A stretch of 64,000 nt of DNA. Source: an uncultured Verrucomicrobiota bacterium. GTDB taxonomy: Bacteria > Verrucomicrobiota > Verrucomicrobiia > Limisphaerales > CAYMCQ01. The position numbers and the translations under genes were made by a program. The DNA lies in the NCBI GenBank assembly GCA_964389025.1, contig CAYMCQ010000006.1:2340-66339 (forward strand), written 5' to 3'. Shown one piece after another: positions 47,272 through 64,000 of this stretch. How positions within the stretch are numbered: position 1 is the first letter of the stretch; each line of letters begins with the position of its first letter. The notes beneath the pieces were generated by a model. The model had not been told where the DNA came from. It did not search any database and saw nothing but the letters and a program-made list of their open reading frames with translations.

Positions 47272-47512
47272 ACAATTGAGAAAACCATGATGCAGAGTGA
47301 AGAAGCGGGTGCCGTGCGAGTGCCATCAAATGGAAAAACGCCCCATTATTATTCCATTGCGAGACGTCGCTGCTCGCGAGTGCGATCAGGTGAGAAGTGT
47401 AGTCCAAAAGTAGTCCAACGCTTCGCCTCCGCACGAGCCCTGCACTGCAACGCACCCGTTGACTTTCTTAGAAAAACCGCGTAAAACCTAATAAAAATAG
47501 CGCTTTGGGATA

Positions 47513-47558
47513 CCTTCTAAGCAGAGGGTCGCGTGTTCGACTCACGCCGGGCGCGCCA
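47513..47558 (+). other. attR-like 3' 46 nt of tRNA-Arg(UCU): anticodon loop to CCA, with no 5' half
   Basis: Reads cttctaa (loop, anticodon TCT), gcaga, gggtc, gcgtg-ttcgact-cacgc (T arm), cgggcgc-g-cca. Upstream sequence cannot pair with the acceptor or anticodon stems. Confidence 0.7.
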
Positions 47559-47564
47559 CTTTCC

Positions 47565-47594
47565 ATTTACGATTTGCGATTTACGATTTACGAT
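47565..47594. repeat. Tandem heptamer repeat (atttacg/atttgcg, about 4 units)
   Basis: Read directly from the sequence, immediately downstream of the tRNA fragment. Confidence 0.8.
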
Positions 47595-47603
47595 GCCTTC
47601 CAC

Positions 47604-48491
47604 GTGCTGAAACTGGAACACCTTGCCGAACTGCTGGAGAAAAACCGCGACGCCGCGAAAGCGCGCGTGAAAGAATTTTCCATCGGCGGAAAAAAATTTG
47701 CGCTCAACTCGCAGCCCGCGATCATGGGCGTGGTCAACCTCTCGCCGGATTCGTGGTATCGCGAAAGCGTCTGCCTGAGCGCGGAAACTGCGGTTCAGCG
47801 CGCGGAAGTTTTGCGGGCGCAGGGCGCGGACATCGTGGACATCGGCGCGGAATCCACGCTGGCTCACGCGGCACGCGCGGGACAATCAGCGCAGCAAAGC
47901 AAACTGCTGCCGGTCATCAAAGCCTTGCGGGCGCGGAAAATTTTGGTGTCTGCCGAAACCTACCAACCGTCCGTTGCCCGCGCCTGCCTGAAAGCTGGCG
48001 CGAACATTTTGAATCTCACAGGCACGAAGCTGAGTTCGGAAATGCTCCGCATGATTGCAGGCCATGATGCCGCTGTGATTCTTTGCTACGTGCAGGGAAA
48101 GAACGTCCGCGATGTCGGCGACTTCGATTTGTGCGGCGACCCGATCGAGGCAATGCGCGAATTTTTTGCCCAGCAGATCGAAATCGCCACCCGCAACGGC
48201 GTGGAGAAAATTTTCATAGACCCCGGCCTCGGATTTTACTACCGCAACTTGCAGGACAGCGCGGTGCGCGTGCGGCATCAGATGAATGTTTTCCTGAACA
48301 CGTTCCGATTGCGCGAGCTTGGTTTTCCCGTTTGCAACGCTTTGCCGCACGCGTTCGAATATTTCGGCGAGGAAGTCCGTTGCGCCGAGCCGTTCTTCGC
48401 GGTGCTTGCTGCGCTGGGCAAAACAGATATGTTCCGCACACACGAAGTCCCGCGCATCAAGGCCGTGCTGGAGACACTGAAGGTGTTTTGA
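47604..48491 (+). CDS. folP: Dihydropteroate synthase-like pterin-binding protein
   Basis: IMGVVNLSPDSWY and GADIVDIGAEST. GTG start at 47604 chosen because the ORF-track start reads through the tRNA fragment and heptamers. Confidence 0.65.
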   Translation: MLKLEHLAELLEKNRDAAKARVKEFSIGGKKFALNSQPAIMGVVNLSPDSWYRESVCLSAETAVQRAEVLRAQGADIVDIGAESTLAHAARAGQSAQQSKLLPVIKALRARKILVSAETYQPSVARACLKAGANILNLTGTKLSSEMLRMIAGHDAAVILCYVQGKNVRDVGDFDLCGDPIEAMREFFAQQIEIATRNGVEKIFIDPGLGFYYRNLQDSAVRVRHQMNVFLNTFRLRELGFPVCNALPHAFEYFGEEVRCAEPFFAVLAALGKTDMFRTHEVPRIKAVLETLKVF

Positions 48492-48541
48492 GCGTGAGCT
48501 TCGGAGGGACGAGTTACACGAGTCCCAAATCAAAGATCAAG

Positions 48542-49603
48542 TCAGGGCGTCGTGGAACTCAGCCCTCCGGATTTGCGGCAAAGAAACACGCCCTCTTCTT
48601 CCGACTTCGTGATCCATTGGTTGAGAACTTCGATGCCGTGCACCGCCAGAATACTTTTCGCGCGCTCTGGCGCGTAGCGATACGAAAAGAAAAGCCGGAT
48701 CGCTTCGCCAGCTCGAAATCGGAACCGCTCCGAGCCCACCCTGATTTCGCGTGCTCTGGTGAAATGAAAATTGGCGACGATGCGTTTCAAATTTCGATGA
48801 GGATCAATCGTGAAGCGCAATTCGCCGTCGCCGTGCTCGACGCCCAAATCCAGCAGAAACGTCATCAGCCAGTCACGGGTCAGCGCGTTGTCGTATTGCG
48901 GCAGGATTTTTTTCAGGCCGGCATCGTAGTCTCTGCCGGGCGCGAGGTTGGCGCTGAACAGCAATAAATCTTTCGGTCGCAGCAGCGACGCGAGTTTCGG
49001 CAAAATGATTTGCGGCTCGAAGTTCGGAATCATGCCGAAGAAGGTGATGAGGCGATTGGCTATCGGCGATTGGCTATCGGCAAAAGCGCCTGAAAGGTCG
49101 CGCGCCGTCGCCAGATCGCACGCGCACGGGAAACAATTTTTCTCCGGCACAAATTTCAGCGCAGCCCGTCTTGCGACCAAAACCATCGGCACGCTCACGT
49201 CGCATGGCGTGTAGGAGATTTTCTTTCCGGCGTCGCGTAGCAACTTCAACAGCCGCGCGTCCTTTTGCCCGCCGCCGCAGCCGAGGCCGATGACGTGGAC
49301 GGTCGCGGATTGTATATTTTTGGCGGCGGCCTTGAAACTTTGTCTGTAAATCTTCGTGCAATCCGGGTCAAGCCGTGCGGGCGAATGCGCTTCATGCAGC
49401 GCGAGCCATTTCTGGGTCTGCTTGTGGCTGTCGTAATGGAACTTGTGGTTGATTCGGCGCAAACGCAGCGATTGGAGCAGGTCGCGCCGGACACTTTCCG
49501 GGAACTGGCTTTCGTGAATGATGACGTTGGCCACGGCTGGCATGAGTGATTGTTTCGGCGAAATCCAGCTAGTGTGCAAGCTTTGTTGGACAAAGCCGAA
49601 CAT
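48542..49603 (-). CDS. SAM-dependent methyltransferase, EgtD-like (Methyltransf_33) fold
   Basis: VIGLGCGGGQKDARLL, FFGMIPNFEP, LLLFSANL, and a C-terminal segment collinear with EgtD as I recall it. Confidence 0.55.
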   Translation of the reverse strand: MFGFVQQSLHTSWISPKQSLMPAVANVIIHESQFPESVRRDLLQSLRLRRINHKFHYDSHKQTQKWLALHEAHSPARLDPDCTKIYRQSFKAAAKNIQSATVHVIGLGCGGGQKDARLLKLLRDAGKKISYTPCDVSVPMVLVARRAALKFVPEKNCFPCACDLATARDLSGAFADSQSPIANRLITFFGMIPNFEPQIILPKLASLLRPKDLLLFSANLAPGRDYDAGLKKILPQYDNALTRDWLMTFLLDLGVEHGDGELRFTIDPHRNLKRIVANFHFTRAREIRVGSERFRFRAGEAIRLFFSYRYAPERAKSILAVHGIEVLNQWITKSEEEGVFLCRKSGGLSSTTP

Positions 49604-52313: not shown

Positions 52314-53111
52314 TTATTCCGCAGACGAAGCGCCGCCGCCTGCGCCGACCGGTTTCTGCGTCGCGAGCCACTTCTGGTAATCCTCCGGCGTGTCCACGAC
52401 GAGGAATCCCGCCGCCATGTTCGCGTGGCCTATACCGCAGAGTTGCGCGCAGTTGATCTGGTAACGGCCAACGTGCGTCGGCGTGAAATGAAGCGGAATC
52501 CTCATGCCCGGAATCGCGTCCTGCGTCACGCGCATGGCGATGATTTTGAAGGAATGGATCACGTCCTTCGAGGAAAGTTGGACAATGACGGGTTTGTTGA
52601 CGGGGACATGGATTTGATTCGGTGATTCGATGTCGTCCTTCGCTGCGGGGTCGGAGAAATCGATGCCGAACTTGTTCGTCGAATTGACCAGATGCATGTC
52701 CTGCTTGCCAAATTTTCCGTCTGCGCCGGGGTAACGGACGTTCCATGCAAACTGCTCCGCAACGACTTGAACGACCGTTGATTCAGACTCTTTGGGAAAT
52801 TCTCCGACTGCTTTTGCCCAAAGGGGAATTGCGAATCCGAGCAACAGGACCCCTTCGGCAATCACGACGATGATTTCGAGGTAGCTCGAATAATGTCCGC
52901 GGACGCCGAGGTAATCGGCCTTCGGGTTTCGGGAACGGCGAAACCGGACTAGCGCGTAGGCAAAGTAGGCCAGCCAGCCGATGAACAGCGCGATCATCAG
53001 CCAATGGACGTAGATGATGAGGCTGTCAACGTCGAGGCCCTGTTCCGAAGCCAGCGGCGGCAGGCCGAGTATTTTGTGAAAGAGATCGTGGAGAAAGTTT
53101 CCCATGGTCAA
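52314..53111 (-). CDS. ctaC: Cytochrome c oxidase subunit II
   Basis: CuA site HSF...CAQLCGIGHANM and two N-terminal TM helices. Confidence 0.9.
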   Translation of the reverse strand: MTMGNFLHDLFHKILGLPPLASEQGLDVDSLIIYVHWLMIALFIGWLAYFAYALVRFRRSRNPKADYLGVRGHYSSYLEIIVVIAEGVLLLGFAIPLWAKAVGEFPKESESTVVQVVAEQFAWNVRYPGADGKFGKQDMHLVNSTNKFGIDFSDPAAKDDIESPNQIHVPVNKPVIVQLSSKDVIHSFKIIAMRVTQDAIPGMRIPLHFTPTHVGRYQINCAQLCGIGHANMAAGFLVVDTPEDYQKWLATQKPVGAGGGASSAE

Positions 53112-60506: not shown

Positions 60507-62114
60507 TCAGCGGAGTTCGATAATCAGGCGTTTTTCCTGGCCAGCCGCAAGCGATAGCGGCAGACCGTCGCGCAACTCTTTGCCGGAACGCTTCACTGAT
60601 TTCACGTCGCCGTCCGTTTTCACTCTGCACTTCCCGTTGGCCCGGACGACAAACCATTCCGGGAACTGGTTGATGCGCGGGTAATCCAACGGCAGACGCA
60701 TTACTTCTTGGTGGCGCGGGCGGTCGAAAATCGCGCGGCCCTGCCACGGAGCGTCGGCGGTGAGGCTGATGAGGAGTCGCTGGCCATCTCGCACCGCTCC
60801 GAATCGCACGTCAGCGCGCCATGGTTCGATGGTCATGCCTTGCGTCTTCCAGAGCGCATACATGAGCGATGTGCGGGCAAAATTACCGTCGCCATGCCAG
60901 CCTTCAATGATTCCATCGGGTTGCTGCTTGTCCCACATCAGACGCGTCTGACTGTCAATCCAGTCGGCGGTGGACGGAATCGGTTCGCGGTTGAACAGAT
61001 TAAGCGCTCCTTCGATTGAATCTGCGAACCCGTCCGCGCTCTTGTCGCGCCAGCAGGCGCCAACGTATTTGCCCTTGAGATTGCCCAACGCTTTGCGAAC
61101 GGCGTCGCGGTAAGCCTGGGTCTTGTCCATCAGCCACATCGTGTAGAAGCCGTCATAGTCGTAGCCCCATGTGTCACAAAGATCCTCGCTGTGTTCGCCC
61201 GTCTGCGGATCAAATGAAACGTAAAGCAGGCCATCTGCATTGCGGGCTTTCTGGAGGATGCAGTCGAACATCTCGTGCATCGGCTTTTTGTAATGGTCTC
61301 TTTTTTCCGGCAGCGCGTGGGCGACCGCGACATAGAGTTCGGTAAGACCGTTGATCACCTCGCAACCATGGTCACCGAGGCGTAGCTGCTTGAGGTCGCG
61401 CGTCGGATGATTCGTGCCCAGCAGGTAGTAATCGCCGAGGCGGATGGCCCAATCGAGATACTTGCGGTCGCCGGTTAACCAGTAGATTCGGGAGGATGCT
61501 TGGAGCAAATCGCCGTTGACCTCGATGTTCAACGTCGGAATTTTTCCGAACGGTGTCTCGATGGGCGCGTTGATCCAAATGTCGTCCACGATGCCGAGCA
61601 TCCGTTCCGACCACGGGCTGGGGCCAAGCCATTCGGTCACGGGGAGCAGGCCGTCCTTCACGTATTCCGCGCCGTCGAAAATGGTCGAGTCGAGGTCGAA
61701 CTTCTCGCGTCGCCAGCCCTTCTTCGAAAAAGAGTAATCGTCCGGAAGACGTCCGACGCGGCTGGTGAGTCGTTGCTCGGTGCGGAGCATGTCGAGCAGC
61801 CGGCCGTTTAGCAGCGCGCGGTCGGTCATAGCGGCGGTGAGCACCATGAACGGGTAATTGTCTGCGGCGGAATCGCGGCCGTTCCAGTAATCGCGGCTCT
61901 CGCGAAGATTCCGCGGGATAAGCCCGGTGGCCGGGTCGGCATGTGCGAGCCAGCCGTCCACGTAGCGGTGACAGCGGGAAAACGCTTCGTTCGCCGCGCG
62001 CGCGTTCTGGCGGGCTTCGGCGAACAGGGTTTCCTCACCCGTTGCTTGCGCTGCCCGAGCCGTTGTGACGTTGGCTGGAACAAGGAGGGTCAGGAGCAAG
62101 AGCGTTGATTTCAT
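60507..62114 (-). CDS. Secreted protein, possible (alpha/alpha)-barrel glycoside hydrolase/lyase-like
   Basis: Start at MKSTLLLLTLLVPANVTTARA (signal peptide, SD-like GAGG upstream). The ORF-track N-terminal extension is a ribH fragment. Confidence 0.5.
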   Translation of the reverse strand: MKSTLLLLTLLVPANVTTARAAQATGEETLFAEARQNARAANEAFSRCHRYVDGWLAHADPATGLIPRNLRESRDYWNGRDSAADNYPFMVLTAAMTDRALLNGRLLDMLRTEQRLTSRVGRLPDDYSFSKKGWRREKFDLDSTIFDGAEYVKDGLLPVTEWLGPSPWSERMLGIVDDIWINAPIETPFGKIPTLNIEVNGDLLQASSRIYWLTGDRKYLDWAIRLGDYYLLGTNHPTRDLKQLRLGDHGCEVINGLTELYVAVAHALPEKRDHYKKPMHEMFDCILQKARNADGLLYVSFDPQTGEHSEDLCDTWGYDYDGFYTMWLMDKTQAYRDAVRKALGNLKGKYVGACWRDKSADGFADSIEGALNLFNREPIPSTADWIDSQTRLMWDKQQPDGIIEGWHGDGNFARTSLMYALWKTQGMTIEPWRADVRFGAVRDGQRLLISLTADAPWQGRAIFDRPRHQEVMRLPLDYPRINQFPEWFVVRANGKCRVKTDGDVKSVKRSGKELRDGLPLSLAAGQEKRLIIELR

Positions 62115-62167
62115 ACCTCGGACGATGACGATTTTGTTGCCGGGGATGTCCCTGCGATTGTTAAGAA

Positions 62168-62295
62168 CCCGCGATGACGGGAATCTCAAACGCGCGGGCA
62201 CGCGGACAATGCGCACGTGCGCCTCGGCGCGCAGCAATTCCTCACGCACCGCGTGCAACATCGCGTCCACATACTCCGCGTTGTAGCGCGACGCA
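62168..62295 (-). pseudogene. ribH-like fragment (about residues 21-66) with frameshift
   Basis: ASRYNAEYVDAMLHAVREELLRA..VRIVRVP is followed by a 1-nt deletion relative to ribH at 60312. Its two ends are near-identical to ribH and its middle is diverged. Confidence 0.7.
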
Positions 62296-62420
62296 ACTTC
62301 TGGTCAGTCTTCCGATCCGAGGAATTCTGATTGCGAATTGTTTTTTCACTGCGCTAAATCGGGAGTTTTCCCGTCAACTGGATTAATTGCACGAATGCTA
62401 GGCTTCTGGATTTCTCAGTT

Positions 62421-63893
62421 TCACGCAAGCTGTTTCTTCCACTTCTTCAACTGCCCCTTCACTTCCTTCGTTCCCGGCGCGCCGGTGATGTTTCTTTTCG
62501 CCATCGCTTTTTCCAGATTGAAAACAGCCATCGCGTCGTTGCCAAAAGTTTTGTCCACCGACTTCAACTCCGCAAGCGTCAGTTCGTTCAGCTTTTTCTT
62601 TTTCCGCTCCGCCAGCGCTACGACTGCGCCGACGACGTGATGCGCCTGCCGGAACGACATTTTTTTCCGCACGAGATGATCCGCGAGGTCGGTCGCGAGC
62701 AGCGCGGGGTCGCTCGCGGCGGCGAGGCACGCGGGGCGATTGACCGAGACGTTCCGCAACATCGCGGCCATGAGCCGGACGCTCGCGCGCACCGTGTCCG
62801 CCGTGTCAAACAACGGCTCCTTGTCCTCCTGCAAATCGCGATTGTAAGTCATCGGCAGGCCCTTGAGCAGCGTCAGCACCGAGACGAGGTTGCCGATGCA
62901 CCGCGCCGATTTCCCGCGAATGAGTTCCGCCACGTCGGGATTTTTTTTCTGCGGCATCAACGACGAGCCGGTCGTGTAAGCGTCGGCGATTTTGATGAAA
63001 TTAAATTCTGAAGTCGCCCAGAGAATCAAATCCTCCGCCAGCCGCGACAGATGAACCGCCAGCAACGCAGCGGCGCTGCAAAATTCCACGACGAAATCGC
63101 GGTCGCTCACGGCGTCAATGGAATTTTGTCAAAGTAGGACAGGCATCTTGCCTGTCCGCGTCGGCGAAGCCGACGCACTGCTCGCGCTGAAGCGCTCGCT
63201 GGACAGGCTGGAAGCCTGCCCTACTTTGAAGAACCCGAGCAACTCCGCCGGAATTTCCCGTTTCAACGGTAGCGTCGAGCCGGCGATCGCGCCGCTGCCA
63301 AGCGGACAGACATTCGCCCGAGAAAAACAATCCAGCAGCCGCGCCGCATCGCGTTCGAGCATCTCGACATACGCAAGAAAATGGTGCGCAAGAAAAACGG
63401 GTTGCGCCCGTTGCAAATGCGTGTAGCCGGGAATCAGCACGCCGGAATTTTTTTCGCCGAGCGTGATGAGACTTTTTTGCAGCACCCGAATTTCTCCGAT
63501 GAGTTGCCGGATTTCAGTTCGCGTCCAGAGCCGCATGTCCAGCGCGACCTGGTCGTTGCGCGAGCGGCCGGTGTGAAGTTTCGCGCCCGCCGGAACGCGC
63601 CGCGTCAGTTCGGCCTCGATGTTCATGTGGACATCTTCGAGTTCCGGCTTCCACCGAAATTTTCCCGATTCAATCTCTTTGCCGATTTGATCCAGCCCCT
63701 TGACGATGACCTTCAACTCCGCTTTGGAAAGCACGCCGATCTTGGCGAGCATCTCCGCGTGTGCCATCGAGCCGAGAATGTCCGCGCGCCACAGCCGCCA
63801 ATCAAACGAAATGGATTCGGTGAAGTCCGCCACGTCAGCCGCCGGGCCGGTTGCGAACCGTCCGCTTCTGGAAACTGGAGAGGTTTTTTTCAT
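62421..63893 (-). pseudogene. argH: Argininosuccinate lyase interrupted by a ~100-nt palindromic element carrying an in-frame TGA
   Basis: The N part (63893..63129) and C part (63110..62421) are in the same frame. Signature GSSLMPQKKNP is present. 35 codons including TGA (63129..63131) lie between LLGF and NSIDAVSDRDF. Confidence 0.75.
63129..63229. repeat. MITE-like palindromic insertion inside argH (TIR tcaaagtagg[a/g]caggc)
   Basis: TIRs at 63129..63144 and 63214..63229. Internal hairpins are ggacaggca-tct-tgcctgtcc and gcgtcggc-gaa-gccgacgc. Confidence 0.8.
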
Positions 63894-64000
63894 GCGTTTC
63901 AACGCGCTGAATCTGCGACGAATCCGGCTGAAAGTCACTGTCAAACATTCGGTCGTAGCGCAGGTTTCCAGCCCGCGAGCCGCACGGCAATTCACACCCT

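Follow-up and report, generated by a model that had tools for sequence, protein, structure and literature searches.

A GTAG-tagged palindromic repeat dimer with an in-frame TGA in the argininosuccinate lyase gene of an uncultured Verrucomicrobiota bacterium

We analysed a 64,000-nucleotide stretch of contig CAYMCQ010000006.1 from an uncultured Verrucomicrobiota bacterium (hereafter the window), in which the argininosuccinate lyase (ASL) gene argH contains a 101-nt palindromic element with a single in-frame TGA. The element can be identified with good confidence as an intragenic heterodimer of GTAG-tagged repetitive extragenic palindromes (REPs), and we consider it probable that a passenger dimer of the REPIN (REP doublet forming a hairpin) or BIME (bacterial interspersed mosaic element) type occupies a tolerant loop of ArgH and that its TGA interrupted the gene recently. 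The assignment to a known class, and the finding that the TGA alone is special to the window copy, go beyond an earlier note on this DNA. The gene and the element are laid out as follows.

63893 to 62421, minus strand: argH, with its ATG at 63893 and its stop codon at 62421-62423.
63231 to 63893, minus strand: native 5′ part of argH, codons 1-221 (M...AELLGF by translation), with about 90% nucleotide identity to the intact genes L167 and L003.
62421 to 63128, minus strand: 3′ part of argH (QNSIDAVSDRDF... to the stop), sharing its frame with the 5′ part.
63129 to 63131, minus strand: in-frame TGA, codon 255 (plus-strand 'tca'), in the context CUU UGA C.
63129 to 63229, no strand assigned: palindromic element, a GTAG-REP heterodimer plus spacer, 101 nt.
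63201 to 63229, minus strand: REP arm at the 5′ end in gene sense, TCAAA-GTAG-GGCAGGC-TTCCA-GCCTGTCC, encoding (F)KVGQASSLS.
63129 to 63157, plus strand: REP arm at the 3′ end in gene sense, TCAAA-GTAG-GACAGGC-ATCTT-GCCTGTCC, encoding TGKMPVLL*.
63158 to 63200, no strand assigned: GC-rich spacer between the arms, with an 8-bp hairpin of its own.

Translation of the minus strand gives 254 sense codons, the TGA and a further 235 sense codons, all in one frame. This bears out the earlier note, which had described two intact argH halves in one frame, 35 codons between ...AELLGF and NSIDAVSDRDF, and a single TGA at 63129-63131. Homologs of the gene carry the Lyase_1 and ASL_C2 domains, and the best of them are argininosuccinate lyases of Verrucomicrobiota (Limisphaerales). 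The extra codons had been counted against E. coli ArgH; they are indeed repeat DNA, but the proper comparators are verrucomicrobial genes, which have 11 codons at this place (for example, VDAKGSPRVS-Q).

We found exactly two occurrences of the 16-nt terminal inverted repeat TCAAAGTAGG[A/G]CAGGC in the window, inverted relative to each other, where 0.07 would be expected by chance. These repeats and the several hairpins had been noticed before; the inverted repeat in fact reaches 29 nt per arm (63129-63157 and 63201-63229) with 86% complementarity, and the arms lie 43 nt apart. Local hairpins are found at 63137-63157, 63158-63176 (the spacer hairpin, GCGTCGGC-GAA-GCCGACGC, 8 bp) and 63201-63221, and the element region as RNA folds at -74.8 kcal/mol (z = -7.2), a stability equalled by none of 200 shuffles. 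Both arms follow the scheme GTAG-G[A/G]CAGGC-5 nt-GCCTG[T/C]CC, each with an unpaired GTAG tag at one end and with the tags facing outward; because their loop classes differ (TTCCA versus ATCTT), the element is a heterodimer. The outermost bases of the inverted repeat, in its extended form, hold the TGA; relatives have Ser or Thr codons there (TCG, TCT or ACT). We found no further copies or half-copies in the 64-kb window, and a near-match at 52961 is not such an element. The spacer hairpin does not recur in the rest of the window or in 169 fetched loci, no database protein shares the spacer peptide, and an 80-residue query spanning the element returned no protein with this spacer, matching only a native fragment. 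An Rfam scan of positions 62000-64000 at E-values up to 10 gave no family, only sub-threshold microRNA and CRISPR noise.

Several traits place the element among the GTAG REPs of Di Nocera et al. (2013, BMC Genomics 14:522, PMC3733652), including the unpaired GTAG tag next to a GC-rich stem of 6-9 bp, the folding of an inverted pair into one long hairpin, the different loops of a heterodimer and the variable or structured spacer. That study describes homo- and heterodimers with variable or structured spacers and reports GTAG REPs from Proteobacteria, Cyanobacteria, Chloroflexi and the Planctomycetes-Verrucomicrobia-Chlamydiae (PVC) superphylum. The study distinguishes 24 GTAG families; the accessible part of its supplementary text does not contain 'GQAS', 'CAGGC' or argH. 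A full-text literature search for the REP core sequence returned eukaryotic primers only.

We then took a census of the family by scanning genome contigs, one genome per species, for the 23-nt pattern GTAGGRCAGGC-N5-GCCTGYC, which revealed at least 119 loci. Among the matches listed, record labels include Verrucomicrobia, Planctomycetota, Acidobacteriota, Chloroflexota (Caldilinea), Nitrospirae, Cyanobacteria (Cylindrospermum, Nostoc and Oscillatoria) and others, and 112 of 166 REP units fall into six loop classes (GTCTC, ATCTT, GTCGC, GTCCC, TTCCA and ATCCT), which indicates that most matches are true family members. A chance origin of the cross-phylum matches (about 70 estimated) was dropped once the loops had fallen into these six classes. 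The same matches include about 26 inverted dimers with outward GTAG tags; their spacers (5-110 nt) show no relatedness from copy to copy. One Caldilinea metagenome-assembled genome (MAG) has REP units on at least five contigs, and other genomes also have several copies.

The family is also linked to a transposase. In Cylindrospermum sp. NIES-4074 (L011), a 176-aa open reading frame (ORF) between two REPs matches the IS200-like Pfam family Y1_Tnp (PF01797; E = 2.8e-7, 31 bits, cutoff 23) and, by reading, contains a PDHVHLL histidine motif and a KSYTAKQ tyrosine motif. In a Verrucomicrobia MAG (L069), tblastn with this transposase gave a match (37% identity, E = 8e-19) that is likewise bracketed by two REPs. 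REPs flanking a Y1 transposase gene are the arrangement of REPs with a REP-associated tyrosine transposase (RAYT), and this flanking, together with the presence in PVC bacteria, Cyanobacteria and Chloroflexi, is a further likeness to the GTAG REPs. REP, REPIN and BIME elements with RAYT or TnpA-REP were reportedly described by Nunvar in 2010, by Bertels and Rainey in 2011 and by Ton-Hoang in 2012. The window element would thus be a small selfish DNA of the REPIN/BIME type, linked to a RAYT, which is an IS200-type Y1 HUH transposase; each arm consists of a GTAG tag and an 8-9-bp GC-rich hairpin. As a separate observation, the RAYT-like gene of L011 (3590-4240, AP018269.1) itself holds an in-frame REP-like unit, GAACAGGCGAGACGCCTGTTCTAC, encoding ...NRRDACSTE.... 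The REP core also appears with identical stems under labels of at least six phyla (L004-L122), including a finished cyanobacterial genome, a spread that is unusually wide for one REP sequence family; some of these labels are MAG bins (for example, Bifidobacterium) and may reflect binning errors.

A length of about 100 nt, terminal inverted repeats of 16-29 nt and the lack of coding capacity would also suit a classical MITE (a miniature transposable element with inverted repeats), the deletion derivative of an insertion sequence with a DDE transposase. We consider this origin very improbable, given that the flanks (GGGTTCT and CAAAATT) show no target-site duplication, with native sequence replaced and not duplicated, and that each arm is itself a GTAG-tagged hairpin. 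MITE interiors are conserved, whereas the spacers here are unrelated between copies and that of the window is unique, and the associated gene encodes a Y1 transposase.

What the element displaced can be read from its relatives. The loop could be delimited in 88 ArgH homologs, 64 of which have 10 residues (typically VDAKGKPQLT) between LLGF and QNS. The earlier note had allowed that orthologs might reveal a native 35-codon loop free of repeats; instead, the native loop has these 10 residues and the additional codons are repeat DNA. The window argH has its closest counterparts in L167 (GCA_964826175.1) and L003, with which it shares 90% of its nucleotides and which have the native loop. The native loop sequence (GTGGACGCC...) has 30 nt, which read GTTGATGCAAAAGGCAGTCCGCGAGTTTCT (or ...GGT...TCG), where the window has 102 nt, TTCAAAGTAGG...CCTACTTTGA, made up of the element and base 63230. 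With 102 nt standing where 30 native nt had been, the gene grew by 72 nt (24 codons) net and kept its frame; the event was a replacement and not a pure insertion between the two halves, as had been supposed. The native loop is the ancestral state for the clade of the window argH, with the element acquired secondarily.

An AlphaFold model of protein P0003, of moderate quality (mean pLDDT, the model's confidence measure, 68.9) and used solely to place the insert between helices, puts the insert between helices 212-219 and 252-283, in a coil whose pLDDT is below 50. The predicted position fits a permissive surface loop of ArgH. The element occupies the variable, disordered loop between ...LLGF and QNSxDAVSDRDF and kept the frame. 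In one orientation the REP core is free of stop codons in two frames of the three, and in the opposite orientation no frame has one, so in-frame copies in permissive loops may survive selection and be translated as about 20-35 extra residues; the element would be a passenger that persists by keeping the frame in such a tolerant loop.

The same loop is occupied repeatedly. Inserts are present in 22 of the 88 homologs, with the frame open in every one, and most are recognisably derived from REPs or are a nested AT-rich palindrome. They include REP dimers (for example, VGQASSLSQFKNKKLETGKMPVLLT or VGQASRLSPFKSKKLETGATPVLLS), inserts with a decayed 5′ arm (VEVVARASRPS...TGKMPVPLLS) and the AT-rich palindrome (TEQTFSTEANK...SSVKKFKVLLS). 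At the DNA level, L001, L124, L143 and L151 have REP dimers at the argH loop in the orientation of the window copy and with an open frame. That of L001, GTAGGACAGGC-TTCCA-GCCTGTC, an AT-rich spacer and GACAGGC-AAGAT-GCCTGTCCTAC, has the orientation, loops and frame of the window copy, and the 5′-end arm of the window recurs in it as arm, loop and reading frame alike; in L124, L143 and L151, GTCGC/GCGAC loops flank a similar spacer. The 5′ junction of these argH dimers varies (F-VGQ..., F-VN-VGQ... and, in the window, F-FK-VGQ...), and the 3′ junction is constant (...PVLL-S/T-QNS). Open-frame dimers at the same loop in so many orthologs show that the element does not in itself preclude a working enzyme.

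A neighbour-joining tree from which the loop was left out has insert-bearing genes at no fewer than five places among native ones, and in it the window argH groups firmly with the native P0001 and P0122. This scatter reflects repeated acquisition, REP-to-REP conversion or transfer of allele patches, which the tree does not separate. The AT-rich palindrome, seen at L002:5971-6100 (CAAATTTTTTTAACAGAAG...CTTCTGTGAAAAAATTTG, peptide TEQIFLTEANK...SSVKKFEVLLS), fills the ArgH loop in other Limisphaerales lineages (proteins P0007, P0009, P0012, P0016, P0021, P0024, P0025, P0037, P0050 and P0070); in P0070, it is nested in the remnant of a REP dimer (IEPASRLP...).

Copies in other ORFs, the subject of a census proposed in the earlier note, were found in purM, hypF, an ABC-transporter ATPase and other genes of other genomes, and none was found elsewhere in the window. 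Pfam confirmed the hosts of REP dimers in long open frames as purM (within AIRS_C), the ABC-transporter ATPase (within ABC_tran), an N6-methylase, an M56 peptidase/secretin protein, a PMT_2 glycosyltransferase and HypF, in which the dimer lies between the zinc fingers and the YrdC-like domain. Three metagenome contigs (L129, L139 and L159) have an in-frame dimer at one hypF site, after the second zinc finger, with loop classes that vary among them (GTCGC/GCGAC, ATCTT/TGGAA and mixed).

Such placement has precedent. Although REPs are extragenic by name, and the window element lies inside argH, intragenic in-frame GTAG REPs are already documented: more than half of the REPs wholly inside ORFs are dimers or groups and encode 20-30 residues in frame, intragenic in-frame dimers are most numerous in the verrucomicrobium Opitutus terrae, different REPs lie at about one recB site in two Xanthomonas species, and inactivating insertions are argued to have been mostly purged (PMC3733652). 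In-frame intragenic copies are thus a published property of GTAG REPs, and the window element leaves knowledge of the class unchanged. It differs from published GTAG REPs in having an in-frame stop and in replacing native codons rather than adding to them. The element also resembles in its behaviour the Rickettsia palindromic elements (RPEs), in that a palindrome of about 100 nt lies in frame in a conserved gene and adds a surface peptide. RPEs, which Ogata and colleagues are said to have described in 2000, reportedly occur as palindromes of about 100 nt in frame in conserved genes and leave the protein intact. Unlike RPEs, the window element is GTAG-tagged and belongs to another host clade; RPE-4 and RPE-6 fall in a CGTC-tagged superfamily (PMC3733652).

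What sets the window copy apart is its stop codon. The window reads CTA CTT TGA CAA AAT where L124, L143 and L151 read CTA CTT TCG CAA AAT, L001 reads CTA CTG ACT CAA AAT and native genes read GTT TCT/TCG CAA AAT. A metagenome scan whose pattern would have matched TGA returned no TGA version of the element, and the TGA is unique to the window contig among the sequences searched. The two changed bases (CG or CT to GA) pair with the TC of the opposite flank, so that the repeat grows from AAAG/CTTT to TCAAAG/CTTTGA; the inverted repeat of the window copy runs 5-6 bp beyond the GTAG tags, and this extension reads TGA in the argH frame. The stop could have arrived with a particular copy, perhaps of a subfamily, that already had extended ends, or a Ser codon could have been changed at two adjacent bases by hairpin-templated correction (a quasi-palindrome template switch).

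Two further features bear on whether the stop is decoded as such.

63079 to 63128, minus strand: perfect 10-bp stem CAAAAUUCCA ... UGGAAUUUUG, beginning one base after the TGA.
62421 to 63110, minus strand: 229-aa ORF from a GTG at 63110 (MSDRDF...), a possible re-initiation product.

An alternative genetic code with TGA as sense was rejected, as TGA terminates 22 of the window's 31 long ORFs. At the argH stop, CUU UGA C matches the +1 frameshift heptamer of prfB, the gene for release factor 2. Although the heptanucleotides are identical, a prfB-type frameshift was rejected because the +1 frame reads DKIPLTP and then closes after 7 codons, with the downstream argH in frame 0; moreover, unlike in prfB, no Shine-Dalgarno-like stimulator was seen upstream of the stop. 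The likeness is a coincidence of sequence, with another mechanism. Inspection for matching take-off and landing codons around the element revealed none, and translational bypass was rejected. Selenocysteine recoding would call for a SECIS hairpin just 3′ of the UGA together with the Sec machinery. A 10-bp stem does begin one base after the UGA; relatives have Ser or Thr here, in a disordered loop, and no tRNA genes, including tRNA-Sec, were found in the 64-kb window. The stem (-28.2 kcal/mol over 72 nt, z = -2.8) consists of the conserved QNS and EFC codons and is perfect in the window through synonymous differences from L167; as it is made of conserved codons and is by eye nearly as good in L003, which has no stop, it is probably incidental.

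These tests also bear on the idea that the element is a non-mobile, lineage-specific structured RNA or peptide module of argH, acting as a regulatory hairpin or a recoding signal (selenocysteine, frameshift or bypass). It recurs at one loop in many argH lineages with conserved stems and variable loops and spacers, its hairpin is very stable and the heptamer CUU UGA C equals the prfB shift site. Even so, this idea is scarcely credible and is largely refuted by the REP census, which found the same arms flanking a transposase gene, inside genes unrelated to argH and between genes in several phyla. The arms decay in some argH lineages (the VEVVARASRPS... type), Rfam yielded no match, and the large hairpin lies upstream and not downstream of the UGA; the early close of the +1 frame, the absence of take-off and landing codons on inspection and the lack of a tRNA-Sec in the window count against it as well.

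Turning to the status of argH, we consider the most likely state of the gene to be a genuine nonsense interruption of very recent date that leaves no more than a trickle of readthrough product. Relative to L167 and L003, dN/dS (the ratio of nonsynonymous to synonymous substitution rates) is 0.10 and 0.08 for the 5′ half and 0.22 and 0.14 for the 3′ half, compared with 0.06 and 0.14, respectively, between the intact L167 and L003 themselves. Such low values in both halves mean that nearly all of the divergence accrued under purifying selection and that any inactivation is recent. Full-length enzyme would then be made solely through low-level UGA readthrough, and the lineage would depend on that trickle or be heading to arginine auxotrophy. 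Within the 64-kb window, we found no second argH or paralog, which covers that much of the search of the genome suggested earlier.

Ranked next, and equal to each other, are two explanations that we regard as possible but unlikely. In one, an error of sequencing, consensus or assembly, or else a variant present in the minority, accounts for the TGA, and the true argH is intact and holds an in-frame REP dimer, as its relatives do. All other insert-bearing ArgH sequences that we found have a sense codon (Ser or Thr) at this position, the TGA variant is unique in the collections searched, both halves have been under purifying selection, and strong hairpins are hard templates for sequencing. However, the two adjacent changes both add complementarity to the other arm, which would not be expected of random base-calling errors, and the perfect runs of the inverted repeat are short (10 nt and 5 nt), which makes a collapse of the arms in a de Bruijn graph improbable. 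No similar split ORF was noticed elsewhere in the window in a crude screen whose matches were not individually checked.

The other has the TGA as real and argH as still working, through UGA-C readthrough by a near-cognate tRNA or through two non-covalently assembled polypeptides, namely residues 1-254 and a C-terminal piece re-initiated at GTG 63110, 19 nt downstream. That GTG, proposed in the earlier note as the start of a second ORF, does open a frame of 229 aa, which NCBI has annotated as a separate protein (P0121, from an 85,379-nt contig); the N-terminal ArgH fragment has no entry in the protein collection with five start codons tried. Low dN/dS in both halves, a break within a disordered loop where relatives accommodate 10-28 extra residues, the stem one base after the stop and the position of the GTG ORF are all in line with a working gene. 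At the prfB frameshift site, the context CUU UGA C terminates poorly, and intragenic complementation is well known in the ASL/delta-crystallin family. Against this, TGA-C is an ordinary terminator in the window (9 of 31 long ORFs), a start at the GTG would drop the conserved QNSIDA residues and has no Shine-Dalgarno-like purine run visible upstream, the stem is probably incidental, and the low dN/dS fits a very recent pseudogene equally well. Belinky et al. (2021, PMC7918605) report that bacteria commonly have in-frame stops under purifying selection, and the window gene resembles these retained stops in being a conserved gene with a single internal stop and a dN/dS well below 1. It differs from them in that its stop lies inside repeat DNA and is seen in a single contig, from which evolutionary conservation of the stop does not follow.

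Several observations weigh against a passenger REP dimer with a recent interruption. One concerns the sequence next to the element.

63231 to 63293, minus strand: divergent stretch of about 60 nt just 5′ of the element in gene sense (KREIPAELLGF versus NRELVAKLLGF in close relatives).

By sliding identity, this stretch is 0.52-0.78 identical to L167 and L003, compared with 0.82-1.00 over most of the remaining gene, and it is no closer to the element-bearing alleles of L001 or L151; a donor allele of the L001 or L151 type is accordingly unsupported. It could be a recombined allele patch from an unsampled donor or, alternatively, the product of local mutagenesis beside the hairpin. The replacement of 30 native nt is itself unexpected under simple cut-and-paste insertion. 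Low dN/dS is as compatible with a functional gene as with a very recent pseudogene. No RAYT gene was found in the 64-kb window by tblastn, and the window holds this one REP dimer alone, which does not speak for a multi-copy family in the window's own genome. Finally, the TCAAA extension is not general in the REP family among the matches listed, so the origin of the TGA is one that we infer.

We also considered whether the ArgH loop, and one HypF site, are true recurrent targets for RAYT-mobilised REP dimers and not merely permissive, a proposal that we hold only tentatively and think rather unlikely. It is suggested by the scatter of insert-bearing argH genes in the tree, with at least three 5′ junctions but one constant 3′ junction, by same-site copies that have different REP loop classes around similar spacers and by the replacement of about 25-30 nt of target without a target-site duplication. 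Were it true, these sites would offer a natural before-and-after series for reading the mechanism of REP dissemination, and outward growth of the palindrome would here have divided a gene essential for biosynthesis, one that may keep working through readthrough or in two pieces.

Whether the window genome is called prototrophic for arginine hinges on one codon within repeat DNA, and annotation pipelines would split or drop argH here; the C-terminal half is already public as a separate protein. The locus would be a clean example of a REP dimer that interrupts a core gene and does not merely decorate it. Alleles of argH, hypF and purM with and without dimers in Verrucomicrobiota provide material for studying the spread of REPs, the mechanisms of which were still termed poorly understood in the abstract of a 2021 paper (PMC8266576).

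Two minor observations concern the rest of the window. Downstream of argH, positions 60507-62270 hold a 587-aa ORF, and synteny is unlike that of L167 and L003, where argH is followed by a small ORF, a thioesterase gene and a squalene/phytoene synthase gene. Long plus-strand ORFs at 47505-48491 and 48083-48967 lie in different frames and overlap by about 400 nt; they may represent a frameshifted gene or a spurious high-GC ORF.

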